Source: Kiritimatiellia bacterium (lineage in GTDB: Bacteria > Verrucomicrobiota > Kiritimatiellia > JAAZAB01). From it: a stretch of DNA of 64,000 nt. Each line of letters begins with the position of its first letter. Position 1 is the first letter of the stretch. A program made the translations under genes and the position numbers. Below are positions 2,247-31,290 of the stretch, piece after piece. The notes under the pieces were generated by a model. It was given only the letters and a program-made list of their open reading frames with translations, was not told the origin of the DNA and did no database searches. The stretch is from assembly GCA_028718125.1 (NCBI GenBank), contig JAQUMN010000005.1, forward strand, positions 3,784 through 67,783. Direction: 5' to 3'.

Positions 2247-2249
2247 GCA

Positions 2250-3563: not shown

Positions 3564-3578
3564 GGCGATTCCCTCTCG

Positions 3579-6035: not shown

Positions 6036-6791
6036 TCAATATATATGCCACGAGGCATCCAGCCCGTAGAGCTTTTCGTGATCGTGCCGTCGGCCACCCT
6101 TACGGGCCAGGAGGCGGGCCATGTCGTGTTGTCCGTAGGCCTCGGCCCAAGTCAGGGGCGTGTTGCCATTATTGTCGCAGGCGTTAATGTCGGCGCCGGA
6201 ATTCAGCAGACATTTAATACCTTCGATATGGCCCCAAAAGGCCGCCCAATGCAAGGGTGTCAGCCCCTGGGTATAGGTTTTGGATTCGATCTCAGCGCCC
6301 TTATCGAGCAATAAGTACATTGTTTTTGCGTGCCCATATTGTGCGGCGCAGTGCAGGGACGTCAGGCCGAAGACATCCTTGGTCTTGACATCGGCCTTGT
6401 GGGCCAGGAGCAAAGCGACCATGTCGTTATGCCCGGCCAGCGCGGCCAAGTGCAAGGGTGTAATGCCGATGTTGTTGGCGGCGTTGATGTCGGCACCCTT
6501 TTCCAGCAGGAGCTTGACTTCGTCCAGCCGGTTAAACTGGGCCGCCACGTGCAAAGCGGTGGAGCCGTCGTTGGCGATGGGCGCGTTGACGTCGGGAGGT
6601 GCGGGTGCCACAACTTCCGCGTTGGTCACAGCCGTAGCTGTCGGTTCCGGCGCGGTAATATTGGTGACCCCCGCCATGGTATCCTGACTCTCCGAGAGGT
6701 CGGGACCGCCGAAGGTCGAGATGGACAGGCAACAGATCCCCAGCATTGCGATCCATCTAATGGCTTTCATGGTGACTTCCGGAGACAACAC
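6036..6791 (-). CDS. secreted ankyrin-repeat protein
   Basis: N-terminal signal-peptide-like MKAIRWIAMLGICCLSISTFG, followed by at least 5 ankyrin repeats (TPLHLAALAGHNDMVALLLAHKADV, etc.). Confidence 0.75.
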   Translation of the reverse strand: MLSPEVTMKAIRWIAMLGICCLSISTFGGPDLSESQDTMAGVTNITAPEPTATAVTNAEVVAPAPPDVNAPIANDGSTALHVAAQFNRLDEVKLLLEKGADINAANNIGITPLHLAALAGHNDMVALLLAHKADVKTKDVFGLTSLHCAAQYGHAKTMYLLLDKGAEIESKTYTQGLTPLHWAAFWGHIEGIKCLLNSGADINACDNNGNTPLTWAEAYGQHDMARLLARKGGRRHDHEKLYGLDASWHIY

Positions 6792-10046: not shown

Positions 10047-10706
10047 ATGAACAGTCAAGCAATGGCTTTGGATTTGTACCCATCGGAGTCCGTGCTGGAC
10101 GGGTGGATGCACTCGTTTGGGGTGTATTACCCCAGGTGGAATGCCATAAGACATCAGAACTCGTCGTGGAGCAAGGCGGTGATTCTGGCAAAGCGAAAAC
10201 ACGAGGCGGTTATAGAACGATTCGGAATAATCATCGCCAGCCATTTGTACCCCTTATTGGAATCGGGAGAGAACTACATCATTACTCCGGTCCCGGGTGA
10301 GCAGGAACGAGAACGCTGCCTATTCCAAGGATTGGAACGGTGCGTTACAGAGATATTGGCCGACTGCATCCATGTAGGACTGAAGGACAAGAATAGCGTA
10401 AAGGTCGAAAACCTGCTGGCTCAGGTCAAGCCAAAGGGCAAAAGACAGCATCAGTGCCTCAACATAGCGGAACGCACGGCCAACGTGCGAAATATCTATG
10501 CCGTTATGAACGGGGGACGGGTTTACGGCAATAACATCATCTTGGTGGATGACGTCATTACATCAGGCGCGACCATGGCCGAATGCGCCCGTATTCTTCG
10601 AGAATCAGGCGCTTCAGATGTTATGGGCGTGGCCCTGGCAAGAACAGTCCGTTTAAGTCAACCGGAAGTCAACCACATCGGCGCCATGAGGGACGGTGGC
10701 ATATGA
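10047..10706 (+). CDS. comF: ComF-family phosphoribosyltransferase-domain protein
   Basis: C-terminal PRTase signature IILVDDVITSGATMAECARIL. RBS AGGAAAGGAA precedes the ATG at 10047. Confidence 0.65.
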   Translation: MNSQAMALDLYPSESVLDGWMHSFGVYYPRWNAIRHQNSSWSKAVILAKRKHEAVIERFGIIIASHLYPLLESGENYIITPVPGEQERERCLFQGLERCVTEILADCIHVGLKDKNSVKVENLLAQVKPKGKRQHQCLNIAERTANVRNIYAVMNGGRVYGNNIILVDDVITSGATMAECARILRESGASDVMGVALARTVRLSQPEVNHIGAMRDGGI

Positions 10707-11041
10707 ATTACTTAGTTGAATTCAAGCGCGAGACGTATGGCCACGATCATCGCGCCATCAATAAGCACAGCGAGAGGTGGTTCAGCGACAACTACGGTCG
10801 CATCTTTGTGCTGTCCCGTACCTTGGACGGATGTCCTCCGTTTTTCGAGGCATACGGACCATTCGCTGAATCCCACAAAGGGGTTCTGCCAAGACTCCGG
10901 GTAGCCGGGAAGGAATACTGGGGTAAAGGTTGGACATGGAAGCAGGCAAGCAAGGCGCTCTGCGCTGAAATCGGTGTAAACACGGGAGGAAACGATAATG
11001 GCGTATCAATGCGAAAACTGTCGGGAAGTGTACGAAAGTGA
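10703..11041 (+). CDS. hypothetical protein
   Basis: ATGA overlap with the comF stop. 112 aa, no recognised domain. Confidence 0.45.
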   Translation: MNYLVEFKRETYGHDHRAINKHSERWFSDNYGRIFVLSRTLDGCPPFFEAYGPFAESHKGVLPRLRVAGKEYWGKGWTWKQASKALCAEIGVNTGGNDNGVSMRKLSGSVRK

Positions 11042-11295: not shown

Positions 11296-11724
11296 ATGGA
11301 GGGTAAAATGAACACTGACAAAATATTTGGCGAGGTGATTTCTCGATACACTCGGTCACAAGCCATTGAGGATGGCGTGCTGGTTGACGTCACAGAGATG
11401 GCGCGGCAAGCGGGGATTAAACACCCGACAGCCATAACAGTCGGCGTGTTTGATGACTACGTGCATGTACCAAAAACACTGGCAGGAATGCAGGACGAAC
11501 AAGGACGACTCTGGGACATTCTCTGGATGTTCGTCTGGCATGCCAAGATTGGCGAAATCAACGGCAACGAAGGAATGTTTGAGGTGTCGTTTCTGACGTA
11601 TGAGGCCAAGGGGCTAAATGAAACAGCCACAAGCCGGAACGAAACAATCATGTTGAAGGCGGTATGCGGCCCAAACGATGATGGATCACCCTGCATCACA
11701 ATCATGAAGCCGGATGAAGATTGA
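11296..11724 (+). CDS. hypothetical protein
   Basis: 142-aa ORF. An alternative start at 11308 has a GGAGGG RBS. No recognised domain. Confidence 0.45.
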   Translation: MEGKMNTDKIFGEVISRYTRSQAIEDGVLVDVTEMARQAGIKHPTAITVGVFDDYVHVPKTLAGMQDEQGRLWDILWMFVWHAKIGEINGNEGMFEVSFLTYEAKGLNETATSRNETIMLKAVCGPNDDGSPCITIMKPDED

Positions 11725-12292: not shown

Positions 12293-15200
12293 TCACGGGA
12301 TTACAACCGCCATGGACAGTATATCGTTTCGGAATCGGTCCAATTCTTTTCGCATAGCCCTATTCGTTATAATATCCCACGAAATGGGTTGTTTATTCCG
12401 GCGGCCGATTTGAGCCATAGCAGGTACAACACCAATCCTCACGCCCCACTCTGGATTATCCAGCAAAGCCTTGAGCCTCTGAATATCTTCTATCGCGCCA
12501 ATTTCTCCGAGGGCTCGCGCCGCGTGAAACAGCACAGCCTCATTCTTGTTGTCGGTTAAAGCGCGAATAATGTCAGGCCGGGCCGCAGAACCAGCGCTAA
12601 CCAGCACCGATAATGCGGCTATGCGAACATCGTTATCCGGATCGTTCAACATGGCGACGACTGTAGCCATTCCCTCTTCTGTTGTAATTCGCAATGATTG
12701 AACAACGGCTTTTCGAATTCGTGCAGACGGACTTCTGATCAATTTGATGAAATCATCTTTTGCATCGGCCTCATACTCCGTTAATGCGGCAATGGCCGCC
12801 AGACAAACGGCTTCACAAGGATCCTGTAATGCTTTCCGCAAAACGGGGACGGCGACCGATTCGTTCGATTCACCGAGCGCTCGCACGCATGATTCGCGGA
12901 CATCCTCGTTGGGGGAATTCATAAAAGTTGCCAAATAATCGGCTTCCCTTTTTTCGTGTCCGCTAATCCGCGCATGAGCCACCAAGGCTTCGACTTGGAC
13001 CTCAATCGATGTGGAGCATGTCAGTTTCTTTACGACTGAGGCAGCGGCTGGCGAACCAATAAAACCGAGCGCGTGGACGGCTTTTGCCGTAAGGGTTGCA
13101 TCCCTTGACGTTTTTATCTGCTGTAATAAACAGGGAACAGCCTTTTCAGAACGGCAGTAGCCCAATGCGCCAATAACAGCAACGAGAGTCCTCTTGTTGC
13201 CGGCTTTCATCATATTGATCAGAGGGGCAACCGCACCATTCCCTATCTTGCCGATGGCGGCGCTGGCCATTTCGGCCACATCCGGAAATGACAGCTTGAG
13301 TAACGGCAATAAGGCCGGGAGGTCATCGTGTGACGGATATTTCGCAACCATTTGCACGGCATCACGAAGGTCGGCTCTTTCTTTTGATTTCAGCAATGGA
13401 CGAATATAGGGTATAGCTTTAGGGCCGCTGTCCGCCAACAAAGCAATGGCCGTAAGTGACGTATCTTTATCGGGAGCAGTCATCAATCGAATCAGGATAT
13501 CGAGGGCCTTCTCCCCCCATGATCGTAGCAGGCCATAAATAAATTCTGGTTTAACCCATTCTTTTGGATGGGCAAATTCCTTTAATAGATATTCATAAAG
13601 GGCTGCGTGATATTGGGCCGGAATAATCGACGAGGGAACTTCATGTAATGCCCGTACGGCAATTTCAAGAGGCCTTAAGGCCAAATCTTCCGGCAAGCAA
13701 CCGAGAAGACGCGGAATATAGGATTTGATATCTTGGGATAAAATTCCTCCAAGCAATGCAAGGGGTTCCATCCACATCGGATCATACATGTTGGCATGGA
13801 CTATCGCAGCCCATTGTGGTTGCCGGGACAAAGCGCGAGCGACAAGGTATTCCTGAAAAGTAAGGTGGAGGAATGTAAACCAATCGCCCTGTTCGTCCAA
13901 CGGGACGATAATACCGTCTTTGCACAAGTAATTGACAATACTTGGATTTTCAAGACGGCGGAGCATGGCTTTGACAGGGTGGGATTCGTCCATGCGATTC
14001 ATGTAGCCATCGGTTGGATTCCAAAAATAATCCGTCAATTCGGACGAAGCGAGTGTCTCGTTGGGAAAATACTTGAATGCGATATCTTCCAGCAACCGTA
14101 AGTTACACTCAATGACCTCGCTATTGGACATTTGCCCCTTATCGAGCGCCGGCCATTGGCCGAGCATGCCTTTGATAATGACCTCATAGACCTCGCATCG
14201 TTGTGTTGGCAATCGGTCCGACTGTCGCCGGGACGAGTAAACCTTGCAGAGCAACGTGGCCAACAAAGGATTCTGGATCATGCCGGCGACAGATGGCCGC
14301 GCATCCAGGTCGGCCAATAACCGCTGGCTCAGATCAGGATTTGCAGCAAAGAAATTGCCGATAAATCGCGCTGTGTCCGGCTTACGAAAGGGGCATAATT
14401 GGAGTTCCTTGCGCTTCCCTCCAGGCGCACGGTCAAGCGATATGAGGTCGGATTTATAACCGATAACACGCGAACTAATAATCAATCTTGCTTTGACGTT
14501 GGCCGCAAAAACATTCAAGCGCTCAGCAACGCCCTCTTGATTCGATCGGACTTCATCCCATGCATCGAGGTGGAGGACGGAATGATAACGGCACGCTTTG
14601 TTGCCGTCATCCCATAACGAACGCCAGAGGACCTGGATCAATGGGGTCACGATCTTCTGAGTTTGGCACAAGGCAAACAGAATAGCGCCGCCGAAAAGTT
14701 CGTAGTCAGTAAGAAGGGAACCGGGAGCAATGACATCAGCCGACTTTAATAGATCGAGGATGTCATCGGCATGGTTGAGCGCCTCAGCGACCCGCGACAA
14801 GCGGACATAAACGGGAATGACAATAGAGGGCGGGTGTTTCTCGATCTTCGAACCCTGTAAGAGCTTTAATGTCGCTTGAGCGATGAGTTTGGAGTTGAAT
14901 TTTAACCATTCCGTTTTTCCGCTGCCCGGATCGCCCAAAAGAATACATTGATCCAACTGATCTACCCAGTCCTTGACTGGTTTACGATCTGGCGCAGTGC
15001 CTGAATCCCAGGCCGAATTGCGAAACGCGTAAATTTTACTGCGTAATTCCGGTTCCGCTTGAACAGACTCGTTCAGCCGGAATCGTTCTCGCGCCATGAT
15101 ATCCTCGGCCTGCAGAACCTGGCGAAATGGAACTGCGGACAGAGGAATGCGGAGCGCATCAAGCTTGAGATGCAGTCTCTCCAGCAAGGGAGATGCCGAG

Positions 15201-16003
15201 AGATGACGGTTAAGCCAGGCAAGGTAATCAACCAAGCCGGACGTTACATCTGGATATTTGTCATCGCGAACATCTGCCGATGGAGGGCGTTCCGGTTTAA
15301 CGGAGGCCCTTATTTCAGATAATAATTGCTTTAATCCAACAACTTGAACATGCGGCCTTCTCATTTCGATCTTTGCTTCCGTGAGTTTTAAGCGAAATGA
15401 CAGGCCTATATCGGACTTCGCCATCAAATAATTGCGGAAGTTTTCTCTTAAGAAAATCGCCTCTTTATCGGGAAGACGTGTCATTCCATCCGATTTATAG
15501 AACGGCATGCGATTTGACCCGAATCCACGGTGGGTCTGTTGTATCGGCATCCACATAACGCGAACAGCTTCTGCTGGAGCGCGGAAGGTGCTTCGTGTCT
15601 TATAACGTTTCAACGCGGCCAACAACTCGACATCGTCGGCAATATCACCGTAGGACACAACCTGGTCGTTTTTTGCCTGTATGTGTCGATCCAGTATCAG
15701 CGCCATAACGCCAATATGAAAGCGGCTGTCCTGATTCATCGCCTTGACGATTAGGCCTTCTTGCAAGGCTCTGCACTCAGGATAAGCATCGGTCTGAACC
15801 CGAAGCACTCCATTCGGCACATCAATGATCAGACGATTATTTGGCATCTGTACCACCCCGTACGGTTCAGAACGGTCCTCCGAGTTGCTCCCATAAAAAA
15901 AATAGCCGAGAATCGAGTCATAAAAAAGCAAATATTGTCGACATATCGACCAGTCAACGCAGAGCTGGACGCGAGGGCATAGTTGCCAAGCTCTGTGAGA
16001 CAA
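12293..16003 (-). CDS. NACHT/STAND NTPase with unknown N-terminal domain and C-terminal HEAT-repeat array (bNACHT/Avs-like antiviral candidate)
   Basis: Walker A ILLGDPGSGKTEWL and Walker B VLHLDAWDEV (NACHT style hhhhD-W-DE). The C-terminal 400 aa are tandem HEAT/PBS-lyase-like repeats (…VRIAALSVL…, …VRESCVRALGE…). A likely alternative start MPNNRLIID at about 15849 has a GGGGTGG RBS. Confidence 0.75.
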   Translation of the reverse strand: MSHRAWQLCPRVQLCVDWSICRQYLLFYDSILGYFFYGSNSEDRSEPYGVVQMPNNRLIIDVPNGVLRVQTDAYPECRALQEGLIVKAMNQDSRFHIGVMALILDRHIQAKNDQVVSYGDIADDVELLAALKRYKTRSTFRAPAEAVRVMWMPIQQTHRGFGSNRMPFYKSDGMTRLPDKEAIFLRENFRNYLMAKSDIGLSFRLKLTEAKIEMRRPHVQVVGLKQLLSEIRASVKPERPPSADVRDDKYPDVTSGLVDYLAWLNRHLSASPLLERLHLKLDALRIPLSAVPFRQVLQAEDIMARERFRLNESVQAEPELRSKIYAFRNSAWDSGTAPDRKPVKDWVDQLDQCILLGDPGSGKTEWLKFNSKLIAQATLKLLQGSKIEKHPPSIVIPVYVRLSRVAEALNHADDILDLLKSADVIAPGSLLTDYELFGGAILFALCQTQKIVTPLIQVLWRSLWDDGNKACRYHSVLHLDAWDEVRSNQEGVAERLNVFAANVKARLIISSRVIGYKSDLISLDRAPGGKRKELQLCPFRKPDTARFIGNFFAANPDLSQRLLADLDARPSVAGMIQNPLLATLLCKVYSSRRQSDRLPTQRCEVYEVIIKGMLGQWPALDKGQMSNSEVIECNLRLLEDIAFKYFPNETLASSELTDYFWNPTDGYMNRMDESHPVKAMLRRLENPSIVNYLCKDGIIVPLDEQGDWFTFLHLTFQEYLVARALSRQPQWAAIVHANMYDPMWMEPLALLGGILSQDIKSYIPRLLGCLPEDLALRPLEIAVRALHEVPSSIIPAQYHAALYEYLLKEFAHPKEWVKPEFIYGLLRSWGEKALDILIRLMTAPDKDTSLTAIALLADSGPKAIPYIRPLLKSKERADLRDAVQMVAKYPSHDDLPALLPLLKLSFPDVAEMASAAIGKIGNGAVAPLINMMKAGNKRTLVAVIGALGYCRSEKAVPCLLQQIKTSRDATLTAKAVHALGFIGSPAAASVVKKLTCSTSIEVQVEALVAHARISGHEKREADYLATFMNSPNEDVRESCVRALGESNESVAVPVLRKALQDPCEAVCLAAIAALTEYEADAKDDFIKLIRSPSARIRKAVVQSLRITTEEGMATVVAMLNDPDNDVRIAALSVLVSAGSAARPDIIRALTDNKNEAVLFHAARALGEIGAIEDIQRLKALLDNPEWGVRIGVVPAMAQIGRRNKQPISWDIITNRAMRKELDRFRNDILSMAVVIP

Positions 16004-16038
16004 GCTGTGATCGGTGATTATGGAATCGAAAGGGGGGC

Positions 16039-16437
16039 ATGATGGACGACTATTTCCACAGGATTTATGGGTTATACATTGATTGGGCCGGCAACATACC
16101 GGACAGCAAGCTGCTTACCATTATACGGCTAACCCTGTTATTCGCCGTGCCAACGGCGATCTATTACTGGGCATTTATCTCCGGACGACGCGGGGGATTT
16201 AGCCGGTTAGTGGCGGCGGTGCTTGCCGATGGACTGGTTCTCGCCGTTCCCATCCACGCGCCATACGACCTAACGGCCAGAGCCTGGATTTTTACCGGTT
16301 GTATCATGGCGTTGGCCTACAGCCCAGGGTCTCTTCCTTTTCTGGTTTATCGAGAGGCGGGGCGACAGCGTCGTCTGCGGCTGGGATTGTATGTCCTAAT
16401 GGCTGTGCTTCTTGTGGTTGGACTGCTGTGGAACTGA
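16039..16437 (+). CDS. small integral membrane protein (about 4 TM)
   Basis: Hydrophobic segments LLTIIRLTLLFAVPTAIYYWAFI, LVAAVLADGLVLAV and LYVLMAVLLVVGLLW. Confidence 0.45.
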   Translation: MMDDYFHRIYGLYIDWAGNIPDSKLLTIIRLTLLFAVPTAIYYWAFISGRRGGFSRLVAAVLADGLVLAVPIHAPYDLTARAWIFTGCIMALAYSPGSLPFLVYREAGRQRRLRLGLYVLMAVLLVVGLLWN

Positions 16438-16449
16438 TAGGGGATCGCC

Positions 16450-17088
16450 ATGTTTACGATAATTAAAACGTGGATACGCAAAGTCTGGCGGCAATTCATT
16501 GGCCAACCTGACATGCCGATTGTTATTCGTCCGATTATAGAAGGCGGCGATAACAGGCACTGGTGGCGCCATAACGCGAAGAATCACGATGCGGAGGAAG
16601 ATCATTTCCGGCGGATGGACCCGACAGAGGCTGCTCGGGAAATCTTCGCGCCCAGTCATGGAGAGGAAGATAGTTACGGGTTTACACGGGTTGGTCCCGA
16701 TGGAACTGTTCCCCATCAGGGCGAACAGTGGGACCGTGAACACAATGCCATGCGGGTGAGACGGCGTAAGTTCATGGTGATCACATGCTCACAAGGCGTT
16801 GTCCGTTCTGCAGAGGAAATCAACGGTATTTGCAGTGAATGTCATGGAACTGAAGCAACCGTTGTTCGCTGCTCTGTTTGTGGCGTCATCCTCTGCCAGC
16901 TTCATGCCTATGTCTTGGAGCATCCTACCGGGAATGTGGTTTATTGCCGGACACATCTCGAAGAAGCCCAGGACAACTGGGACACATGGGAAGCCTATGA
17001 CGTTCAACGGGGAGTGCGGCCCAGTCGGAGTGTGTATCCTGGGCGACCGCACGCAGTGGCGCGATATTTACAAAAACAAGGTGGCTGA
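16450..17088 (+). CDS. Cys-rich (zinc-ribbon) hypothetical protein
   Basis: C-terminal CSECHG...CSVCGVILC...CRTH. Lies 13 nt after the membrane protein gene and directly before the ATPase gene. Confidence 0.45.
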   Translation: MFTIIKTWIRKVWRQFIGQPDMPIVIRPIIEGGDNRHWWRHNAKNHDAEEDHFRRMDPTEAAREIFAPSHGEEDSYGFTRVGPDGTVPHQGEQWDREHNAMRVRRRKFMVITCSQGVVRSAEEINGICSECHGTEATVVRCSVCGVILCQLHAYVLEHPTGNVVYCRTHLEEAQDNWDTWEAYDVQRGVRPSRSVYPGRPHAVARYLQKQGG

Positions 17089-17089
17089 A

Positions 17090-18799
17090 ATGACTAACGA
17101 CAAACCAAACAAGCATACCCAGTTCGAGCGGGCGCTCATAGAACTGGAAATGGCCATGAAGTCGGGAAAGATCGCCGACCCACTAATTCAGGAGTACTGG
17201 CGCCGTGGACTGTCGCCTCTTGGCAATGGTGAGCATGGAGCGAAGGCACAGGCAATTCTGGAGAATCTGCTGACAGGACCCTCAATCCTGGCCGGTCTTG
17301 CATTGCCGTCCGAGCCGCCGGAGCCCGAAATAGATCCCAGGTTGTTGGTGTTCATCGGCCGGCGACGGGCCCTGCGTCGGATGACTGGGATTTTGAAGAA
17401 GCTACTGACTATGCACCTGCTTATTCAAGGACCCACGGGCTCTGGAAAAACAAATCTTATCTGGTTCATCATTCAACAGCTAATTGAAGCCGGCGTGAAA
17501 GTAATTTTCCACGATCACAAGAATGAGGGCCGTAAATTGCTGCGGCGATATTCCGGCGTCGTTGTTCTCCGAGTATCGGACTTCCGGGAAAACCTCCTTA
17601 AACCGGTGGGAGACCCGAAGCAGTATTTCTCGACATTCTGGAGCGAGTTTGCGCGCGCTTACAAAATCCGCCGCGAGACAGCCGTGAAACTCGTCGGTAT
17701 TTCTATGCGAGTTTTTGCCGGCTTGAAGCCTGATGAGCCCCATCCCAGTCTTTATGACTTTGCCTGCATGTTGCACAGGATGGCGAAAAGCGAAGGCGAC
17801 TCGACACTGGCAACTGCCGCCGTGGCATTGGAATCGCTGAATGCAACACTGGGAAAAGCGGCGACTGTCCGCGAAGGGTCTTGTGCCGATGATGTCTTCA
17901 ATGTGGTTGTGATGCAATGTCATGGGCAACCCTCTGAGTTTCTCGAATTCTTCATGGGTATCCGTTTATTCCGTAGCCATGTGAAGGCGATTGCCCATGG
18001 ACATACGGGTGAATTGACGTCCGTGGTCGTCAGCGACGAGGGGGGCATTGAATTCGCCAAAGAGTTCAGTGCTGAGGCCGGATCAGGATACATCACTCCG
18101 CAGAAACGGTTGATTACCCAATGCCGAAGTACGGGGACCGGTTTGGTAATCGCCACCCAAAGTGTCAGCGCGATTGACCCTGCCGTCATATCAAATATCG
18201 GATCGTTCGTATGTCTGAAGGCGCAGTCTGATTCCGATGTGCGTATCAGCGGTCGGCTTCTGGGTTTCTCCGATGAGCGATTTGACGAAGTTCGGAATAT
18301 TCCACGCTGGTCTGGCTTGCTCAAGACGCCGAGCCATTCGGGCGCTGTTCTTGTTGATATCCCTGAGGTGGACATGGGCGACTACATGAGCGACGAGGAA
18401 CTGGATAGATTAAATCGCACGGCGTTTGAGCGTTTGAACACGCAATCGATTTTTGCGCCGGTCCATCAGGACGCCGGAGCGCCAATATCCTACAGGGACA
18501 TCCTCGGCGAGACGACGCCACCTGCTCCGGCAGCATCAGACTCAGATCAATTATTCGACTTCCGGGCCGAACACACGAGCTTCATTCGCGAAATTATTGC
18601 ACACCCTGATGCCAGCGTCGTGGAGCATTACGTGAACCTTGGGTGGAGTGCCGGACGGGGTAATCGTGTGAAAACCGATCTCATGGACAATGGCATCATT
18701 GAGTCACAGCGCCAGACTTCGCGCAATGGCCGGCCTATCGAACAGCTTGTACTGACGGAAAAAGGGAGGGCGCTTTTCGATGACGCATCAAAAGCATAG
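17090..18799 (+). CDS. P-loop ATPase of the HerA/FtsK/VirD4-VirB4 clade
   Basis: Walker A HLLIQGPTGSGKTNLI followed by VIFHDHKNEG (the DpxGE box characteristic of HerA/FtsK/TraG-like ATPases); later GLVIATQSVSAIDP. The track ORF begins at 16799, but the ATG at 17090 directly follows the upstream stop and avoids overlap. Confidence 0.65.
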   Translation: MTNDKPNKHTQFERALIELEMAMKSGKIADPLIQEYWRRGLSPLGNGEHGAKAQAILENLLTGPSILAGLALPSEPPEPEIDPRLLVFIGRRRALRRMTGILKKLLTMHLLIQGPTGSGKTNLIWFIIQQLIEAGVKVIFHDHKNEGRKLLRRYSGVVVLRVSDFRENLLKPVGDPKQYFSTFWSEFARAYKIRRETAVKLVGISMRVFAGLKPDEPHPSLYDFACMLHRMAKSEGDSTLATAAVALESLNATLGKAATVREGSCADDVFNVVVMQCHGQPSEFLEFFMGIRLFRSHVKAIAHGHTGELTSVVVSDEGGIEFAKEFSAEAGSGYITPQKRLITQCRSTGTGLVIATQSVSAIDPAVISNIGSFVCLKAQSDSDVRISGRLLGFSDERFDEVRNIPRWSGLLKTPSHSGAVLVDIPEVDMGDYMSDEELDRLNRTAFERLNTQSIFAPVHQDAGAPISYRDILGETTPPAPAASDSDQLFDFRAEHTSFIREIIAHPDASVVEHYVNLGWSAGRGNRVKTDLMDNGIIESQRQTSRNGRPIEQLVLTEKGRALFDDASKA

Positions 18800-19214
18800 T
18801 CGCGGTTACGAATTAATGGACCACCGCCAGGCCAAGGTTGAAGGCCGAGCGATGCTTCTCGCAGCCGGGTTTGATCTAGCTCAGTGCGAATACCGGAACG
18901 CGGATGTGGTCGGGATGCGGCGGGCCGGCAACCGAATTTACGTCCTAACTGTGGAATTTGAGAGGACCGCGCGGAACGCGTTAAGAAATATTCGCCGTAA
19001 TCTAGCAAATGGTAGCGATTGCGTTTTGGAAGCGTGCATGACGCCATCAGCCAAGGACGCGATACAACGACTAATTCGGCAAAAATTGAGGCCCGATGAG
19101 CAAGAGAAAGTTCGTGTAGTGCTGTGTGACGAACTGAGTATCGAGCTTTTACGCTCATTGAATGGGGAAAACAAGGTTGATTCAGAGTTTATTCAGGTTT
19201 CTTCGCGGAGTTAA
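18780..19214 (+). CDS. hypothetical protein, possible restriction-endonuclease-like fold
   Basis: Start overlaps the ATPase stop by 20 nt. ...GFDLAQCEYRNADVVGMRRAGNRIYVLTVEFERT resembles a D...ExE/K nuclease core. Confidence 0.4.
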   Translation: MTHQKHSRGYELMDHRQAKVEGRAMLLAAGFDLAQCEYRNADVVGMRRAGNRIYVLTVEFERTARNALRNIRRNLANGSDCVLEACMTPSAKDAIQRLIRQKLRPDEQEKVRVVLCDELSIELLRSLNGENKVDSEFIQVSSRS

Positions 19215-19315
19215 TTCCGCGGAAATGCGGGTTTGTTCAGATTGATTCACAAAGACACTGCAGCCGATGTGACAGTAGGAAAAACAAAGCAGTCACGGAA
19301 AGGAGGTGAAAACAG

Positions 19316-19570
19316 ATGAACTCCAAGAACATTACGATCGTGAAGCCTGGAGCAGGCGAAAACGCGCTGAGCGAAGCATATGACATCACGATTCAGCCTG
19401 GACACACGGGCAAGCAGGTGGTGGAGCAACTGAAGCTTAAGGGCGAGTATAGCCTGACGAAAGGCGACGGCAAGCCGGTTGATATGTTGGCGGACCTTTT
19501 CCCGCTCGTTGAAAACGGAGAAAAGTTGTTCGCAACGACGCCGGCGACGGTTGGACGGTTGGCGGCATAA
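19316..19570 (+). CDS. ubiquitin-like beta-grasp protein (BilA-like)
   Basis: 84 aa. Strong RBS AAAGGAGGTG. First gene of the Ubl-E2-JAB-E1 operon. C-terminus is ...TVGRLAA (Gly followed by a 4-residue tail). Confidence 0.55.
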   Translation: MNSKNITIVKPGAGENALSEAYDITIQPGHTGKQVVEQLKLKGEYSLTKGDGKPVDMLADLFPLVENGEKLFATTPATVGRLAA

Positions 19571-19572
19571 CA

Positions 19573-20205
19573 ATGATACGGGGGATGACGGCTGTGAGTG
19601 ACGATTTTGACGCTCTTGAATATCTCAAAACACATCCTGATTGGTTCAAAAAGCCTGTACTGATAGGTATGAATCAGAATAAGGATTCGGAAGACGATTC
19701 GATTCAGGCGCGGGCAGACCGTTTCCTCCGCCGTCATCGCCCTGTCATTAATATTCAGCCGCCGATTACAATTCGGCAGTTTCGGCATATTGAAGTGCCC
19801 AATAACTGGCTGCCTTCTGGCAAGGTTAATCAAAGGCAAAATACAGCCTCTTCAATAGTACTAAAAGCCGTACGGCCATATGCCCGCAGATCTCGTACTT
19901 CAAGCTATTGGGAGGATTCAGGATGGGAACATAGAGGCACAAACCTTATCGGATACTATAAGGCTGGGGATAATTCGTATAGGGGAGCTGTAGAACTGAC
20001 GGACAGTAGCTATCGGCCCATGAAGTTCTACATCTATGATCCGCCCAGTGTCATCCTAGATGGGCCACATGGGGCATGTTATCATTGGCAAGGACTGTCG
20101 GGACTAAATAAGTACTGGATTCATTTTAGCGAGGGACCGGCAAACATAGACAGTGGAATAATTCAAATCGAGCGCTCTCTATCGGAAGCACTGGGAGTTG
20201 AATAA
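19573..20205 (+). CDS. E2-like ubiquitin-conjugating-fold protein (BilB-like)
   Basis: Position between the Ubl and JAB genes. Candidate catalytic Cys in ...LDGPHGACYHWQG. Assignment is by operon context plus a weak motif. Confidence 0.45.
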   Translation: MIRGMTAVSDDFDALEYLKTHPDWFKKPVLIGMNQNKDSEDDSIQARADRFLRRHRPVINIQPPITIRQFRHIEVPNNWLPSGKVNQRQNTASSIVLKAVRPYARRSRTSSYWEDSGWEHRGTNLIGYYKAGDNSYRGAVELTDSSYRPMKFYIYDPPSVILDGPHGACYHWQGLSGLNKYWIHFSEGPANIDSGIIQIERSLSEALGVE

Positions 20206-20225: not shown

Positions 20226-20915
20226 ATGGACAACGCAAAACCAAATAAAGACATGGGTATCATCTATGACTTTCTGGCAAAAACAGCTAACAGATTGGAG
20301 GCCAAATTACTGGATGCTTGCCGACAAAGTGATGAACCCATGGCGTTGAGTATTCTTACTGAATTGCTCGATGTTTCAAACGTTAAACGTGTATCGGAAA
20401 GCGCCATAGCGGATATGCCGAACGAGATCGCGATCCCGACATATATGCTGAGCACGCTCACGATTCAGGAAGCCTGCGAAGTTCTAACGAAAACCATGGA
20501 TGAAGATCTGCGGTTTGCGACAGGGCTGGTTGTTGCACCTATGAAATATGCCGTAACGCGGCTGTTGCAGTTCGAGCTGAAGAGAAAGTCTGCTGTAGCG
20601 GCAGAGGGCGATCAGCAGGCAGTGGCCCGTCTTCTGATCGGTTTGCATAATCACGATCATAAGCTGTTCATGACTTGGCACAGTCATCCTGGTTCCGGTG
20701 CGAATTCGACTATGCCATCGCCAATCGATATGGATTTCCATCGGCGACTGGAGGTCGGGAACTACCCGGTGATTGGGGGTATTGTCAATAGGCAGGGATA
20801 CGTGCGTTTCTTCTCGTACAAACGGCCGTTCAGGGTTTCGATCTATGGAAAAGGAATGGAGGTAGTAAATGAACAACACAATGTTTTTAAACTCGATACG
20901 ATCAGTGCGGTTTAA
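20226..20915 (+). CDS. JAB/JAMM metalloprotease, deubiquitinase-like (BilC-like)
   Basis: JAMM motif WHSHPGSG...S..D (HSHP...PSPIDMD) and an upstream Glu. Confidence 0.7.
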   Translation: MDNAKPNKDMGIIYDFLAKTANRLEAKLLDACRQSDEPMALSILTELLDVSNVKRVSESAIADMPNEIAIPTYMLSTLTIQEACEVLTKTMDEDLRFATGLVVAPMKYAVTRLLQFELKRKSAVAAEGDQQAVARLLIGLHNHDHKLFMTWHSHPGSGANSTMPSPIDMDFHRRLEVGNYPVIGGIVNRQGYVRFFSYKRPFRVSIYGKGMEVVNEQHNVFKLDTISAV

Positions 20916-21678
20916 TTCCAACGGTTTTCATCCTGAGAAATTGGAGGAAGGCCAGAAATCTGCAACGGCCAGCCAGGAGCAGTTGCCGGGATTCAATCAG
21001 CAGAACCTTCGGAACGCCCGGATTCAGATGATTGGATGTGGCGGCATTGGCGGTTCCATTTTGGACAACCTTGTGCGGAAGGGATGTGGACACGTTGATG
21101 TTTACGATGGTGACGATGTTGAACTTGGCAATCTCGGACGGCAGAAGTTTTTCCCGTCCGATGTCGGGAAAAACAAAGCGCTCTGCGGTGCGCGAAACGC
21201 CATGCCCCATGCTTCCTGGCCGACCGAGATTGTTGCTCATCCCGTGTGGTTTGAGGATGCGGTGAACCATGGCATGGTCGGCGGCGCGAGTGCCGCGATT
21301 GTGGGGCCTGACAGGGATAGCACAAGGGTCTATTCCAGCAGGTACTTCTATAAAATGTGCCCGGTACTCTTTGTGGGGATCGGTACACGCGCCGAACATG
21401 GATACGTGTTTGTGCAGAAGCCTGGCGAGGCATGTTTTGCATGTCTTTTTCCTGATGCCACGACAAACAAACGTGCACCGTGTCCTGGCACACCGGCGAT
21501 GATTGACATCCTGCTGGTTACCGCCGGGCTCGTGCTTACGGCATTGGATGCTCTCCTGATGCCGGGGCGAAAGATCAATTGGAATTATTGGGATATCTAT
21601 CCGTCTGGAGCCATTTTAACGCAGCCATTGACTATTGAACGGCGGAAGGATTGCCCGATATGCGGGAAGTTCGGTTAA
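20869..21678 (+). CDS. E1-like ThiF/MoeB-family adenylyltransferase (BilD-like)
   Basis: IQMIGCGGIGGSILDNLVRKGCGHVDVYDGDDVELGNLGRQ Rossmann/ThiF motif. Zn-site CFAC...CPIC. GGAGG RBS. Overlaps the JAB gene by 47 nt. Confidence 0.8.
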   Translation: MNNTMFLNSIRSVRFNSNGFHPEKLEEGQKSATASQEQLPGFNQQNLRNARIQMIGCGGIGGSILDNLVRKGCGHVDVYDGDDVELGNLGRQKFFPSDVGKNKALCGARNAMPHASWPTEIVAHPVWFEDAVNHGMVGGASAAIVGPDRDSTRVYSSRYFYKMCPVLFVGIGTRAEHGYVFVQKPGEACFACLFPDATTNKRAPCPGTPAMIDILLVTAGLVLTALDALLMPGRKINWNYWDIYPSGAILTQPLTIERRKDCPICGKFG

Positions 21679-21688
21679 GCATACTCAT

Positions 21689-22054
21689 ATGGAGGCGGTT
21701 ATCATGATTATTCTTTACATGTTTCTATCGGCAATGTGTGCCTTGGGACTTGTCTATCTGCTTGAAATTGGATGGATCAATCGTCCGCCTTATATTGCGA
21801 CCCAGTGGCCGAAGGGACGGGCGATGCGATTCATGTGGACGGCAAGCGGCATCGTTTTGGCAATCAGTCATATCCCCTTGGGGATCCTGGCGGCTCTTGC
21901 CTGCCTGCCCGTGTGCCTGGCTCACCTGTCGTTGGTGGATCGAAATCCCGCGATAAGAATTGGCGTGGGTGAAGTGTTCGGACAAATCTGTCAGATGACG
22001 AAGGCATCATTCCGCCGGTTCATGGATCGAACCCGAATCGGACCTCACTGCTGA
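21689..22054 (+). CDS. small membrane protein
   Basis: 3 predicted TM helices (IMIILYMFLSAMCALGLVYLL, ...GIVLAISHIPLGILAALACLPVCLA). Confidence 0.4.
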   Translation: MEAVIMIILYMFLSAMCALGLVYLLEIGWINRPPYIATQWPKGRAMRFMWTASGIVLAISHIPLGILAALACLPVCLAHLSLVDRNPAIRIGVGEVFGQICQMTKASFRRFMDRTRIGPHC

Positions 22055-22067
22055 ATCGAGGTAAAAC

Positions 22068-22451
22068 GTGGGCACATTATCATCAATCAATGTCCTGTTG
22101 GTCGTAATAATCGGCGTTGTTACCGCGATAGTCAGTTGGCGGGTGTTGTGCCAGGCACTGAAGTTTAAGAACCCGGTCCTAGGGATATGTGTTGGCGCTC
22201 TGACAGGTTTGGGTTTGGCAACGAATATAGGAGGAACTATGTCTGCACTCTTGATTCCCTACGCGGCGCTCGGGATTGCGATTATCTTGATGTTTCTTAT
22301 GGCCCCGTTTCTGAACCGAAAGAAGGACAAGGAAAAGAAGTCGTTATCGCCTGAGCCCACAAATAACGTGTGGAAGCCGGAAGACCCTTGGGAGCGGGAA
22401 ATTCGTCTGAATGGAAAAATGGCTGGCAAATTCAAGGCGAGAAAGCGGTAA
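22068..22451 (+). CDS. small membrane protein with Lys-rich C-terminal tail
   Basis: GTG start. 3 TM segments, then ...NRKKDKEKK.... Confidence 0.4.
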   Translation: MGTLSSINVLLVVIIGVVTAIVSWRVLCQALKFKNPVLGICVGALTGLGLATNIGGTMSALLIPYAALGIAIILMFLMAPFLNRKKDKEKKSLSPEPTNNVWKPEDPWEREIRLNGKMAGKFKARKR

Positions 22452-22491
22452 CGGGAATGGATGCTGTTTTCAAACAGGAGTTGACCCCGCA

Positions 22492-22977
22492 ATGGAAATG
22501 GATGTCGAGCATATGTCAAGGGATGCCAGGATGTGGCGGATTGGCCACATCCTGTCGAAAGGTATTTCCCTTATGCTCGCCAAGGAAATGGAGGAACGAG
22601 AAGCGCTGGCACGAAATGCACTAGCCACGCAATTCGGCGAAAACAACCGCGAAGGACAAACGACAAACTTGTGTGATGACAGCAAGGCGATCCTGGACTA
22701 TCTCAGGCGGGTGGGTCCAGCTTCACCGACTAATATCTGGCGCTACACGGGAATATCAAGGACGACCGTGTTCCGAAGGTTGAAAGAGCTGACTAAAGTT
22801 GGCTTATTGCAGAAGACGGGAAGGGATAAATCTGTGCAATATATGACGATCGGATTTGGCAATAATGATCCTAAACCCGATAATCCTTCGGCAATAAATG
22901 ACGGGAAGAGCGATTCCGGCATTAGTGCTGTGGATGGATCTGTTGAAATGCAGGATTTTACTCTAAACAAGAGATAA
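22492..22977 (+). CDS. winged-helix transcriptional regulator
   Basis: ...DYLRRVGPASPTNIWRYTGISRTTVFRRLKELTKVGLLQKTGRDKSVQY is a wHTH. Start chosen at the ATG at 22492 to avoid overlap. Confidence 0.45.
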   Translation: MEMDVEHMSRDARMWRIGHILSKGISLMLAKEMEEREALARNALATQFGENNREGQTTNLCDDSKAILDYLRRVGPASPTNIWRYTGISRTTVFRRLKELTKVGLLQKTGRDKSVQYMTIGFGNNDPKPDNPSAINDGKSDSGISAVDGSVEMQDFTLNKR

Positions 22978-24139
22978 GTTCGGAGACACGTTCTGAGTTC
23001 GGTGAAATATGGGCGCGCATGCTTGGCGTTCGAAGTAATTCCTCCAGGTTTTTGCGACTGCACGCGTGATATTTCGACATTATCCAGACAAATTCAGCCG
23101 TGTAGTCCGGGATAGCCCGAAGGAGTGAGTAACGAGCATGCCGAATATGATCATCTTCATTTGGAATCCATTTAGCGCCGCTCTTGGCCAGAATATGAAT
23201 GATTTTAATTTTCTCCCGCGACTCCGGGGTATCCACATTCCTCTGTCTGGCACTTGAATAAAGACTAAAAGAATAACCTAGTCCCGAAAGAAGGTTTTGG
23301 ATTGCTGAACATCCTCCGTTAGATTGATCGTTCGGGTTGACTCCGCATTCCAAAAGATACGTGATTAAGGCGGATGCATTCTCACCATGCGCGTATCGAA
23401 TTGCACTGGCAATAGCCGGATGTTTCGGATCGATTCTGATCTGTCTCATTCGAAAAACGTCATAATGTTCATATAGGGCGGCATATTCTAAGGCGCTTAT
23501 ACCATCCTCTGCGTCCTCTTCGTGTTCAGGATCAACAGGCCCGGAGGCATATAAATCGGCTCCTGCCCATACCATCAAGGAAATCCATTTCATATTGCCT
23601 TCCTTGCAATGATAACGAAGGGCAATGTTAATCTGTTGCTGGAAAGATGGAAATCGAGCCTTGTATTTGATTGCTATCTTCAAGGCAGTACGAATTCTGG
23701 AGCAAAGGGCTTGGGCGAGAGGATTCCCCGTGTCGACATCAGCGCCCCGTTCGATGAAATATTCCATAATATCGGGTTGCCAGGTCGAAAATACGTCATT
23801 CATATCTACAGATTTAGCGTTAGCACCATTTTCAACCAGAAGTCGGACCATATCGAAGCGTCTATTCCATAAGACACGAGAAAGTGCATCATACTTTTGA
23901 TTGCGCTCGATTTCGGCGCCACCTTCCAGCAAAACTTGTACAAGACTGTGGAATCCGCTTTCGATGGCATACTGTAAAGGACTTCGCGGACGTGCTCCCT
24001 TTTCCGGAGGAAGGGGTGGATTCACGGGTTTTCCTGACCTTATCCATTCCTGAACTGCAAATAGTTGGCCCGTCTTACACATCTCGATGAGGGGCTTAAC
24101 TTCTTCGTATGAGCTTGCTCTATTCATTTTTGCCACCAT
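22958..24139 (-). CDS. ankyrin-repeat protein
   Basis: Multiple ANK-like repeats (SPLQYAIESGFHSLVQVLLEGGAEI..., ISALEYAALYEHYDVF...). Confidence 0.6.
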   Translation of the reverse strand: MVAKMNRASSYEEVKPLIEMCKTGQLFAVQEWIRSGKPVNPPLPPEKGARPRSPLQYAIESGFHSLVQVLLEGGAEIERNQKYDALSRVLWNRRFDMVRLLVENGANAKSVDMNDVFSTWQPDIMEYFIERGADVDTGNPLAQALCSRIRTALKIAIKYKARFPSFQQQINIALRYHCKEGNMKWISLMVWAGADLYASGPVDPEHEEDAEDGISALEYAALYEHYDVFRMRQIRIDPKHPAIASAIRYAHGENASALITYLLECGVNPNDQSNGGCSAIQNLLSGLGYSFSLYSSARQRNVDTPESREKIKIIHILAKSGAKWIPNEDDHIRHARYSLLRAIPDYTAEFVWIMSKYHACSRKNLEELLRTPSMRAHISPNSERVSELISCLE

Positions 24140-25510: not shown

Positions 25511-25945
25511 TTAAGTGGTACTGATCGACACGATTGTCTGGTGCTCCTGGCGTATTTTTTCGAATGCGCTCTGGCGAGCAGAGACAGTTCTTTTTGCAAG
25601 AATGCAGCGCAGTCTATTTGCAGAGAAATGGCGCAGTTCTTGCCGCGTTTTGAGGGTTGCGACATAGCTGATAACTTCTTCTGGGAGGTTCAAAAGATTC
25701 ATAATTTGTGTTACATTAGCTCGAGAAATGCCGTTTTCCCTGGCGATTCTAGCTCTGGTTAGTTCCGGATCAGCTAGCAGGGCCTTCTGCCAAGCAAGAG
25801 CGGTTTGTACGGGGTTCTTGGACGTGCCGGGCAAAGATGATTCGGGCACGTTTGGCCTTGTGGCTTGCTCGTAGGCTACGACCGGATATGGGAAAGGATG
25901 CGCAATAAACGGACGCGCGCCCCACCTGGGAAATGGGATGCCCAT
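25511..25945 (-). CDS. ParB-HTH-like small DNA-binding protein (paralog A)
   Basis: IARENGISRANVTQIMNLLNLPEEVISYV resembles the ParB/Spo0J HTH (..SHVANLLRLLELPEEV..). N-terminus MGIPFPRWGARPFIAHP is shared with paralog B. Confidence 0.5.
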   Translation of the reverse strand: MGIPFPRWGARPFIAHPFPYPVVAYEQATRPNVPESSLPGTSKNPVQTALAWQKALLADPELTRARIARENGISRANVTQIMNLLNLPEEVISYVATLKTRQELRHFSANRLRCILAKRTVSARQSAFEKIRQEHQTIVSISTT

Positions 25946-26286
25946 GACGATGGAGATAAGGTCATAGTTCGTATCGGGCAGCGGCCTGCGGAGCCAACCC
26001 TTTGGAAATACGAACTTCGGGTCTCATCTTCACTTCCCTATAATATTCAAGTATTTTCCGGGGAATCCTTAATCAAGTACCTGCGAAAAGTTCGTATGTC
26101 GCACTTGATGGTGCAAACAGATAACGAACATTATCGGTATCATTTGTTCTTCAGCGATCATAAATCACTTCCGTCGTTTTCCCTTCTGTTTTGTCATATC
26201 TCCATACCCCGACTGTCAGTCATCGTGGGATCCAACGAAAATAATGCCACTGGCAAGTGATCATAAGATGAGGCATATTGGTCGTC

Positions 26287-30997: not shown

Positions 30998-31290
30998 GAC
31001 GATGGAAATGAGGTCAAAGTTCGTATCGGGTAGCGGTCTGCGGAGCCACATTGACCACGGCTATAACCTGTGTTTTCTCTCCGCAGCGGCTTTTATTCCT
31101 TCCTTTCCATCTGGGGAAATCTTCATATTCCCCTTGTTTTTCAAGGAGCTACCATCGCATCCAACCGAGGCTCCAAAATCAATCAGAGCGGCAATTTTTC
31201 CCGGGTTATAGCTGACAATCCTAAAACAAGGTTTTACCGAACAGAGCTCGAACCTGTGGTTGCTGCGTAAGTGCCACGCATATTCGACGC

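Follow-up and report, generated by a model that had tools for sequence, protein, structure and literature searches.

A rare four-gene module of a HerA-type ATPase and a predicted nuclease linked to ubiquitin-like conjugation cassettes on integrative elements of Kiritimatiellae and Verrucomicrobia

A 64,000-nucleotide stretch of contig JAQUMN010000005.1 from a Kiritimatiellia bacterium (assembly GCA_028718125.1; the whole stretch is hereafter called the window) encodes four adjacent genes, g1 to g4, which form a real, rare and conserved module. Comparison with related loci shows that this module is evolutionarily linked to ubiquitin-like protein (Ubl) conjugation cassettes of at least two architectures, and that the cluster rides integrative elements of Kiritimatiellae and Verrucomicrobia. 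In the window the four genes look like the upstream half of a single unit of 8-11 genes that also includes such a cassette. We tentatively read the whole as one conflict system, in which a membrane-tethered ATPase-nuclease would act on DNA and be regulated or targeted by Ubl conjugation, and give this reading a probability of about 0.45. The fixed evolutionary tie of a Ubl cassette to a membrane anchor, a two-zinc finger protein, an ATPase with a putative DNA-binding domain and a predicted nuclease raises two testable ideas: an ATPase-nuclease effector might be regulated or targeted by the Ubl cascade, and the zinc-finger protein might be the missing adaptor or E3. The four genes of the module are as follows.

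16039-16437, + strand: g1, membrane protein of 132 aa with 3-4 transmembrane (TM) segments
16450-17088, + strand: g2, soluble protein of 212 aa with a putative binuclear zinc finger
17090-18799, + strand: g3, P-loop ATPase of the FtsK-HerA superfamily, 569 aa from its ATG
18780-19214, + strand: g4, protein of 144 aa with a predicted PD-(D/E)xK restriction-endonuclease fold

The list of open reading frames (ORFs) confirms the four tightly packed plus-strand genes that a first-pass annotation of the window had described, including the single nucleotide between g2 and g3 and the 20-nt overlap of g3 with g4; the gap between g1 and g2, given there as 13 nt, is 12 nt. The mechanical ORF of g3 begins at a TTG at 16799, and its ATG lies one base past the g2 stop. 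Purine runs resembling Shine-Dalgarno sequences stand ahead of g1 and ahead of the Ubl gene of the downstream cassette. The ratios of nonsynonymous to synonymous substitution rates (dN/dS, pairwise Nei-Gojobori against orthologues) are 0.055, 0.17, 0.085 and 0.22 for g1 to g4, respectively, values that mark each of the four as a genuine gene under purifying selection.

The module is rare. An exhaustive profile search among 1.84 billion representatives recovered 106 members of the g3 family at E<=1e-30, some 60 of them full length, and 543 at E<=1e-10; in terms of clusters at 50% identity the family comprises ~100 among these 1.84 billion. A word-indexed search with g3 returned 13 homologues of 41-92% identity, one of which is named as a protein of a Kiritimatiellae metagenome-assembled genome (MAG), and the family is absent from the defence-system model sets searched. 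Gene neighbourhoods were obtained by an exact-protein look-up, a genome scan, which gave a Verrucomicrobiales MAG and Pontiellaceae bacterium B12227, and a metagenome scan; the resulting loci (numbered L001 onward) were compared by tblastn of the window proteins together with ORF inspection. Several of them are near-duplicates (L002/L003, L008/L009, L006/L013/L016 and L011/L012). The order g1-g2-g3-g4 is present in every locus that is long enough, down to an ATPase identity of 28% (L007), and the co-conserved set occurs on Kiritimatiellae, Pontiellaceae and Verrucomicrobiales contigs, host groups that we take to be members of the Planctomycetes-Verrucomicrobia-Chlamydiae (PVC) group. Together with the tight spacing, this shared order upholds the earlier view of a co-conserved, translationally coupled module. 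None of the homologues in the recovered loci lies inside a type IV secretion system (T4SS) gene cluster, and neither relaxase nor T4SS genes occur in the window island or the related loci scanned, in line with the earlier remark that no other conjugation genes are present. A phage origin was considered and rejected: IMG/VR and INPHARED hold no relatives, and PHROGs yields just a partial match to 'terminase large subunit' (3.8e-11, ~60 residues). Among the PLSDB plasmids only distant ATPases were found, namely DptH and a 1076-aa Lactococcus ATP-binding protein beside dynamin and HNH genes.

Directly 3' of g4 in the window, on the same strand, lie four genes with the layout of a Ubl-conjugation cassette.

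19316-19570, + strand: candidate Ubl, 84 aa, like bilA in position and size and with a conserved C-terminal end
19573-20205, + strand: candidate E2-like protein, 210 aa, with a conserved C-terminal part of ~110 aa containing P-H-x-x-C
20226-20915, + strand: JAB/JAMM peptidase, 229 aa (Pfam Prok-JAB, E 2.3e-5)
20869-21678, + strand: E1-like adenylating enzyme, 269 aa (Pfam ThiF, 5.9e-26)

A Ubl/E2/JAB/E1 cassette holds this very position and strand in 12 of the 13 related loci that reach more than ~400 nt past g4 (L001-L005, L008-L010, L014, L015, L017 and the L011/L012 type). The window and all of these except the L011/L012 type share the order Ubl-E2-JAB-E1, over a range of ATPase identities of ~35-93%. 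The junction between g4 and the Ubl gene can be very tight, with a 4-nt overlap in L002 and a 6-nt gap in L004. Moreover, the two halves diverge in step: the paired identities of the ATPase and the E1 to those of the window are 93/93, 79/83, 68/78, 66/78, 70/73, 36/43, 40/42 and 40/41%. The picture of a stand-alone four-gene system beside a Bil operon, as drawn in the first-pass annotation, therefore gives way to one in which the cassette directly follows the module and both evolve together. The flanks behave differently. The DUF6573 gene of the window (11296-11724, + strand) is 87% identical to its counterpart in L011 (2101-2526), where the ATPase is only 37% identical, and this points to different histories of the backbone and of the g1-g4/Ubl cluster, as expected of a mosaic element. 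The ORF ahead of DUF6573 (10583-11041, + strand) is likewise 76% identical to its L011 counterpart (1526-1828).

The second cassette architecture is that of L011/L012, where the slot after g4 holds a TM protein, a Multi_ubiq-like Ubl, a Prok-E2_E-like protein and a JAB-E1 fusion, the E1 part of which is only 23% identical to the window E1. In a neighbour-joining tree of the ATPases, which carries no support values, L011 and L006 nest with L014 and L015, both of which have the Bil-like cassette; this nesting suggests replacement of the cassette in L011 and its loss in L006. E1-type genes also occur within 4-6 kb of the module in L007 and L006/L016. In L006/L013/L016 an E1-type gene and a possible E2-like gene lie 5-6 kb upstream on the other strand. 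In L007 g4 is followed by a serine recombinase; further on, a JAB-E1 fusion and an AAA+ gene encoded on the opposite strand appear from their sequences to constitute another Ubl-type cassette, here with an unfoldase-type ATPase. That cassette lies 4 kb past g4, beyond a DUF2924-like gene and the recombinase, and comprises (14642-18150, - strand) the 590-aa JAB-E1 fusion, a 126-aa protein and an AAA+ protein of the Cdc48 subfamily (AAA_2, 1.4e-32).

The ATPase g3 consists of a helical N-terminal region of ~100 aa, an ATPase core at ~105-420, a low-complexity linker and a predicted C-terminal winged helix at ~500-565. The Walker A motif GPTGSGK120T and the VIFHDHKNEG stretch, both already recognised in the first-pass annotation, are present and conserved; the Walker B pair D316-E317 is invariant, and K120, R340/R346 and Q357 are conserved. 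Its membership in the FtsK-HerA superfamily stands, as the Pfam DUF87/HerA central domain is matched above its cutoff (33.2 against 23.2 bits), in the P-loop region only, and other matches reach past the P-loop. PADLOC mad8 (1.8e-16) aligns over model positions 26-292 of 314 with g3 residues 107-417, and PADLOC HerA models match as well. A profile of the family built from 13 homologues matched in the PDB the HerA subunits of SIR2-HerA and DUF4297-HerA, as well as DptH (E 2.5e-6 to 0.012), with g3 ~266-438 aligned to the HerA subunits. In contrast, the likeness to VirD4, TraG or FtsK that had been proposed shrinks to ~25-45 residues around the P-loop: TrwB_AAD_bind matches with E 0.0097 over 42 residues, the TraD models reach 15-19 bits against cutoffs of 366-521, the VirB4 models match the P-loop only and far under their cutoffs, and FtsK_SpoIIIE (E 0.011, 15.7 bits against a cutoff of 24) covers 25 residues and stays below the motor-domain threshold. 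The best NCBIfam matches, themselves weak, are to the DNA-translocating ATPases CedD and CedB. By hydropathy g3 has no TM segment, and its residues 1-100 match neither the HAS-barrel nor any other Pfam domain. The last ~80 residues give subthreshold matches to the winged-helix families PadR, TbsP_C and HTH_34 in the window, L006 and L011, and no PDB sequence match; they probably form a winged helix with a putative DNA-binding role. Two homologues of g3 are split, one in L015 (4910-6585) over two frames at ~5293, through either a frameshift or an assembly error, and the other, on the contig of P0013, into genes of 112 and 428 aa.

For g4, the earlier description of a nuclease-like protein with a D..ExE core is borne out. 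Its predicted structure (mean confidence, pLDDT, 77) has an alpha-beta-beta-beta-alpha-beta core, and the top 25 Foldseek matches of this model are nearly all of the restriction-endonuclease fold, with BamHI, Hjc, Cap4 and Shedu among them, at weak E-values (best 4e-3). E37, D42, E59 and E61 are invariant across ten loci and make up the motif E37...D42...E59-x-E61. The D...ExE variant of the PD-(D/E)xK motif is the one seen in BamHI (E77/D94/E111/E113). On the strength of the model and these acidic residues, g4 is a predicted nuclease of the PD-(D/E)xK fold with a BamHI-like D...ExE motif. NurA, the partner of canonical HerA, is not matched by g4 in Pfam. A truncation of g4 in the window, suggested by its 144 aa against 180-187 aa in L001-L005, was rejected because only the unconserved tail varies in length, and versions of 123-151 aa occur in several lineages.

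The remaining two proteins of the module are less readily placed. g1 has hydropathy segments at 25-43, 52-75 and 111-132 and no family match in Pfam, PADLOC, NCBIfam or PHROGs; orthologues of 24-70% identity stand directly 5' of g2 in L001, L002, L004-L007, L010-L012, L014 and L015, and the protein is probably the membrane anchor of the module. g2 combines an N-terminal basic/hydrophobic helix and a beta-rich middle with a zinc finger at ~125-170, whose eight ligands (C128, C131, C141, C144, C149, H152, C166 and H169) do not vary within the close clade; three of the four distant members (L006, L011 and L014) have them as well, and the last, L007, retains four. The eight Cys/His ligands show the cross-brace-type spacing of the B-box/AN1/FYVE/RING class, and the isolated finger gives subthreshold Pfam matches to an ANCHR-like B-box (8.9e-4), zf-AN1 (6.6e-3) and zf-B_box. 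Hence, rather than the plain zinc ribbon of the first-pass annotation, g2 carries an eight-ligand, B-box/AN1/FYVE-like binuclear finger, which we would weakly assign to the treble-clef type, its subfamily being uncertain.

In the cassette, the Ubl C-terminus reads ...T-P-x-x-V-G followed by 2-4 removable residues, with the VG kept in all orthologues and a dN/dS of 0.13. It has no match in Pfam, PADLOC or NCBIfam, so a beta-grasp fold can only be inferred for it. The E2-like protein is without family or PDB sequence match in Pfam, PADLOC, NCBIfam or the PDB, and we base its putative assignment as an E2 on the P-H-x-x-C motif, whose H and C are conserved in an eight-locus alignment; in L015 and L017 the Ubl is fused to it. 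The Prok-JAB match of the peptidase scores 24.7 bits, just below the cutoff of 25, and the motif H-S-H-x10-S-x-x-D can be read in its sequence, with orthologues of 30-86% identity. The E1-like enzyme matches Uba1, MccB, MoeB, ThiF and Cap2 in the PDB and stays below every curated NCBIfam cutoff; its PADLOC, NCBIfam and PDB matches are limited to generic ThiF/E1 entries and CBASS E1-E2 models. It has a C-x2-C in the crossover region and another at the C-terminus, a layout identical to that described for BilD (PMC10557695). An identity as a PRTRC protein was rejected for the E1-type genes, the matches lying under the NCBIfam cutoffs. The VG end, the P-H-x-x-C, the JAMM motif and the two C-x2-C pairs would fit an active cascade. 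The downstream 'Bil operon' of the first-pass annotation is thus retained as to gene order, ThiF and JAB, and not as to membership of the Bil entries of PADLOC, NCBIfam or the PDB: searches of these returned nothing Bil-specific for the Ubl, the E2-like protein or the JAB.

The reading as a single conflict system is favoured because the g3 core has affinities to defence proteins (mad8, SIR2-HerA, DUF4297-HerA and DptH), because it has a nuclease-fold partner and a cargo-like position in L014, because AbiE and STAND/NACHT proteins are among the neighbours, and because precedents exist for E1/E2/JAB machinery coupled to effectors, namely CBASS Cap2/Cap3 and 6A-MBL. The latter precedent, with a nuclease effector, is named in NCBIfam as the 'anti-phage 6A-MBL system', and operon type 6a is listed in the Iyer 2006 survey (PMC1779556). 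From the domain identities and the linkage, which are observed, we infer every step of the following mechanism. g1 would tether g2 and the hexameric-type ATPase ring of g3 to the inner membrane, where g3 would bind double-stranded DNA via its winged helix and use ATP for loading or translocation; g4, translationally coupled to g3, would dock on the ATPase and cut the DNA. Such a pairing would be comparable to HerA-NurA, SIR2-HerA and DUF4297-HerA, in which the ATPase scaffolds the effector and switches it on. Attachment and removal of the Ubl might turn the effector on or off, in the manner of Cap2/Cap3 in CBASS; alternatively, the cascade might tag a protein arriving with foreign DNA. The g2 finger could be an adaptor, E3-like or Ubl-binding, that joins both halves. 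The whole would serve to defend the host or the element against phages or competing mobile DNA. That g2 indeed is a bacterial E3-like or Ubl-binding adaptor coupling the Ubl cascade to a membrane-bound HerA-type ATPase-nuclease is a speculative, distinctly unlikely extension. If it were true, Ubl tagging would direct or license an ATP-driven motor in a prokaryotic system, a functional echo of the eukaryotic ATPase machines that ubiquitin directs with the help of AN1 or treble-clef adaptors, and a downstream effector of a bacterial Ubl pathway would be defined for the first time.

Several observations weigh against a single conflict system. None of the components scores over the curated threshold of a validated defence family. 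In L006/L013/L016 an 834-aa membrane protein follows g4 in place of the Ubl cassette, and in L019 an HTH_17-like gene does; these loci, with g1-g4 or g3-g4 and no adjacent cassette, indicate that the module need not have a cassette beside it to persist. The related loci represent few lineages, so the associations among them are not fully independent. In the window g4 and the Ubl gene are separated by 101 nt, with a weak terminator-like hairpin (19216-19231, + strand) right past the g4 stop; a promoter and terminator scan of the region, however, says little about operon boundaries, since its terminator-like counts are not over the shuffled expectation. Finally, the cluster is always found in a mobile-element backbone and could serve the element rather than defend the host.

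This last point leads to the main alternative, that the cluster handles the DNA of the element itself, in transfer, uptake, segregation or packaging, with g3 as a double-stranded DNA pump like Streptomyces TraB or FtsK. Here g1 and the small TM proteins encoded further downstream would be akin to Spd-type partners, g4 would process DNA, and the Ubl cassette would merely co-travel, as PRTRC-type cassettes do on integrative and conjugative elements. In its architecture the element resembles the actinomycete integrative conjugative elements (AICEs). Integrase and HTH_17 excisionase-like genes indeed adjoin the cluster in L004, L006, L011, L014 and L019, and the AEP primase-helicase, the ParB-HTH proteins, the small TM proteins and the ATPase with a terminal winged helix-turn-helix would all suit it, as would the lack of other transfer machinery in the window island and the weak best matches to CedD and CedB. 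Against it, the FtsK_SpoIIIE, TrwB, TraD and VirB4 matches remain restricted to the P-loop and far under cutoffs, g3 lacks a TM segment, and the matches that span its full core are to defence-type HerA and mad8. The phage collections hold no relatives and the plasmids only distant ATPases, and a second, unrelated Ubl cassette at the same position is left unexplained. To our knowledge, moreover, TraB-type transfer is not known from diderm PVC bacteria. We hold DNA handling to be unlikely; were it true, it would amount to a TraB-like DNA-transfer route in these bacteria.

A further alternative is that two independent systems, a four-gene ATPase-nuclease defence system and a stand-alone Bil-like one, merely travel together. 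The loci with g1-g4 and no adjacent cassette (L006/L013/L016 and L019) and the 101-nt gap with its hairpin speak for such independence, as does the fact that the known Bil and Bub systems work with four or three genes and have no partners of this kind (PMC10557695, PMC11601596). Yet the halves are adjacent on the same strand with a 4-nt overlap or few-nt gaps (L002 and L004), they co-diverge from 93% to ~36-43% while the flanks shuffle, and a non-orthologous Ubl cassette occupies the same slot in L011/L012. No Bil model of PADLOC, NCBIfam or the PDB, moreover, fits the Ubl/E2/JAB set, which gives no ground for regarding this set as an independent system. Two separate systems are in our estimate improbable.

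It is also conceivable that the cluster is a counter-defence or establishment module, which would neutralise the immunity of a new host by tagging defence proteins with the Ubl or by degrading the DNA of the host or of competitors. It sits among genes for single-stranded-DNA-binding protein (SSB), RadC, DUF6573, DUF932 and ParB-like proteins, which we take to be typical of the early-entering or anti-restriction regions of conjugative elements, and it diverges fast relative to the backbone gene DUF6573. No known anti-defence family is matched, though, the combination of ATPase, nuclease and membrane anchor fits effector machinery better than inhibitors, and the L014 island holds little beyond the cluster and an integrase; we regard this as very unlikely. 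A degenerate remnant of a T4SS coupling-protein locus (VirD4/TraG/TraD) is effectively refuted, as the weak P-loop matches to TrwB_AAD_bind (E 0.0097), TraD and VirB4 that could suggest it cover ~40 residues far under the cutoffs, g3 has no N-terminal TM anchor, relaxase and T4SS genes are missing from the window island and the related loci examined, and g1-g4 are conserved as a set under purifying selection.

Bil, Bub and CBASS Cap2/Cap3 are the established bacterial Ubl conjugation systems against which the cluster can be compared. For most bacterial Ubl systems the effect of the tag and the choice of target are open, as the Bil and Bub papers state (10.1101/2024.11.21.623966). The cassette order Ubl-E2-JAB-E1 is that of bilA-D (PMC10557695), with a recognisable ThiF E1 and JAMM peptidase; it differs from Bil types I and II in having no sequence match to Bil models or structures and in always following the g1-g4 module, which the described operons lack. 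Some of the relatives here fuse the Ubl and the E2. Bub, or 6E (DUF6527), is paralleled by the Ubl-E2 fusions of L015 and L017, which resemble BubAB, and by the JAB-E1 fusion with a Prok-E2_E-like protein in L011 (PMC11601596). In contrast to Bub, no DUF6527/BubE protein was detected here, the Ser/Tyr oxyester chemistry is set against a conserved Cys, of the thioester type, in the window E2-like protein, and the Bub operons have no ATPase or nuclease partners. In the Bil, Bub and 6A-6E descriptions, as covered by PMC10557695, PMC11601596, 10.1101/2024.11.21.623966, PMC1779556 and targeted full-text searches, we found no Ubl cassette partnered by a HerA-type ATPase, a nuclease of the restriction-endonuclease fold or a B-box/AN1-like finger. 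Metal-binding proteins of other kinds were noted in the 6c-6e operons by the 2006 survey, which also recorded an FtsK-like ATPase beside YukD, a Ubl that is not conjugated, in ESX/type VII secretion loci (PMC1779556). The only published neighbourhood of a Ubl and a membrane-associated HerA-like ATPase that we found is in Sulfolobales, where a Urm1-like Ubl adjoins an ATPase of the SSO0283 family (PMC2948915); it differs in being archaeal, in lacking an E2, JAB, nuclease and zinc finger, and in its informational-gene context.

On the side of the ATPase, SIR2-HerA, DUF4297-HerA and HerA-NurA likewise place an FtsK-HerA ATPase beside a small nuclease-type partner gene, and the HerA subunits of the first two are the closest solved relatives of g3. 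The differences lie in g3, which lacks a detectable HAS-barrel N-domain and has the predicted C-terminal winged helix, in g4, whose predicted fold is BamHI-like and which is not a SIR2, DUF4297 or NurA protein (no PADLOC match), and in the added membrane, zinc-finger and Ubl components. FtsK, SpoIIIE and TraB share with g3 the superfamily, the succession of motor, linker and C-terminal winged helix, and a link to the membrane, here via the separate g1; they differ in that the match of g3 is limited to the P-loop, and in that g3 has no N-terminal TM domain and has a nuclease partner. mad8, the best profile match of the g3 core over nearly the whole model, is mandatory in MADS (mad1-mad8; bioRxiv 10.1101/2023.03.30.534895). 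No homologues of mad6, mad7 or of the methyltransferase, kinase or specificity subunit were found here, and membership in MADS was rejected as only mad8 matches, with g1, g2 and g4 lacking any PADLOC match at E<=1. The earlier statement that the combination corresponds to no named defence system accordingly holds for PADLOC, in a PADLOC-DB version dating from 2023. Taken together, the cluster is not categorically new; it appears to be a variation on Ubl-conjugation systems and HerA-effector pairs.

Three further genes follow the E1 in the window.

21635-22054, + strand: TMa, small membrane protein with two hydrophobic segments
22068-22451, + strand: TMb, small membrane protein of 127 aa with hydrophobic segments at 1-31 and 36-84
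22411-22977, + strand: MarR/IclR-type winged-helix protein of 188 aa (HTH_IclR 5.2e-7, MarR_2 3.5e-6)

TMa probably starts near 21689, which would make it ~116-121 aa long. Its orthologues, of 45-84% identity, stand 3' of the E1 in L001-L005, L008 and L009; those of TMb occur in the same seven loci, and both are restricted to the close clade. Orthologues of the MarR/IclR-type protein were found in L001, L005, L008 and L009, and it is possibly a regulator of the cluster.

On the other side, the neighbour of g1 is the following.

12293-16003, - strand: P-loop/HEAT-repeat protein of 1236 aa (HEAT_2 9.3e-44)

It had been taken for a STAND NTPase, of which the P-loop (GDPGSGKT) remains; the match to an NTPase domain is weak (NPHP3_N 0.0013), and PADLOC HEAT-ARM_XIII (1.2e-16) also matches the HEAT repeats. 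The slot 5' of g1 holds a large protein, usually on the opposite strand, which is different in nearly every locus: a 35%-identical orthologue of the 1236-aa protein in L002, a NACHT protein in L005, a 967-aa protein in L004, an M48-like multi-TM protein of 1011-1019 aa plus a protein of 313-363 aa in L001 and L011, a 551-aa protein in L006 and a 448-aa protein in L014. Thus, the 1236-aa neighbour is probably not a fixed part of the system, and the slot could be either a cargo hotspot or the place of a variable sensor of the system.

The island around the cluster has ~50% G+C, against ~65% from 35 kb onward. Beside the cluster it encodes SSB-like, RadC, DUF6573 and NERD proteins, the HEAT-repeat P-loop protein, ankyrin proteins, two ParB-HTH proteins, the AEP-TOTE primase-helicase and an AbiEi/AbiEii pair. 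The 'defense island' of the first-pass annotation is therefore fair as regards AbiE and the STAND/NACHT neighbours, and the setting is equally that of an integrative mobile element. Among the relatives, the cluster is adjoined by DUF932, by HTH_17 excisionase-like genes and by recombinases of the tyrosine or serine type, and in L014 housekeeping genes border an island of ~10 kb that consists of the cluster and an integrase. ParB-HTH homologues follow the MarR-like gene in L001, L005 and L009, which suggests a shared element backbone; the two of the window lie at 25511-25945 and 30584-31051 (both - strand).

A few genes of the window and its relatives merit separate mention. The AEP-TOTE gene (26278-28749, + strand) encodes an 823-aa protein in which the primase (Pfam 2e-98) is fused to an SF2 helicase (ResIII, Helicase_C); a literature search found no paper on a 'TOTE conflict system' that interprets it. 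It is followed by the AbiEii toxin/AbiEi antitoxin pair (28768-30383, - strand; 3.4e-31 and 2.4e-34). Ankyrin-repeat proteins, unusual in bacteria, flank the island core at 6036-6791 and 22958-24139 (both - strand). The 834-aa protein of L006 (8654-11158, + strand), which matches no family, combines TM helices at its N-terminus with a coiled coil and is succeeded by an HTH_17-like gene, a tyrosine integrase and leuS. In L019, past the HTH_17-like gene, a trio (1072-3958, + strand) that reads as a vWA protein, a PP2C-like phosphatase and a Ser/Thr kinase is TerY-P-like. Further along the window, at ~34500-57000, the G+C fraction rises from ~0.46-0.55 to ~0.60-0.67. This high-GC block opens with a 2841-aa ORF (34621-43146, - strand) and ends near a tRNA-Asn (57162-57236, + strand), overlapped by a large serine recombinase gene (57195-58937, - strand; Resolvase 5.6e-40). 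The block has the look of another integrated element or of a boundary in composition.

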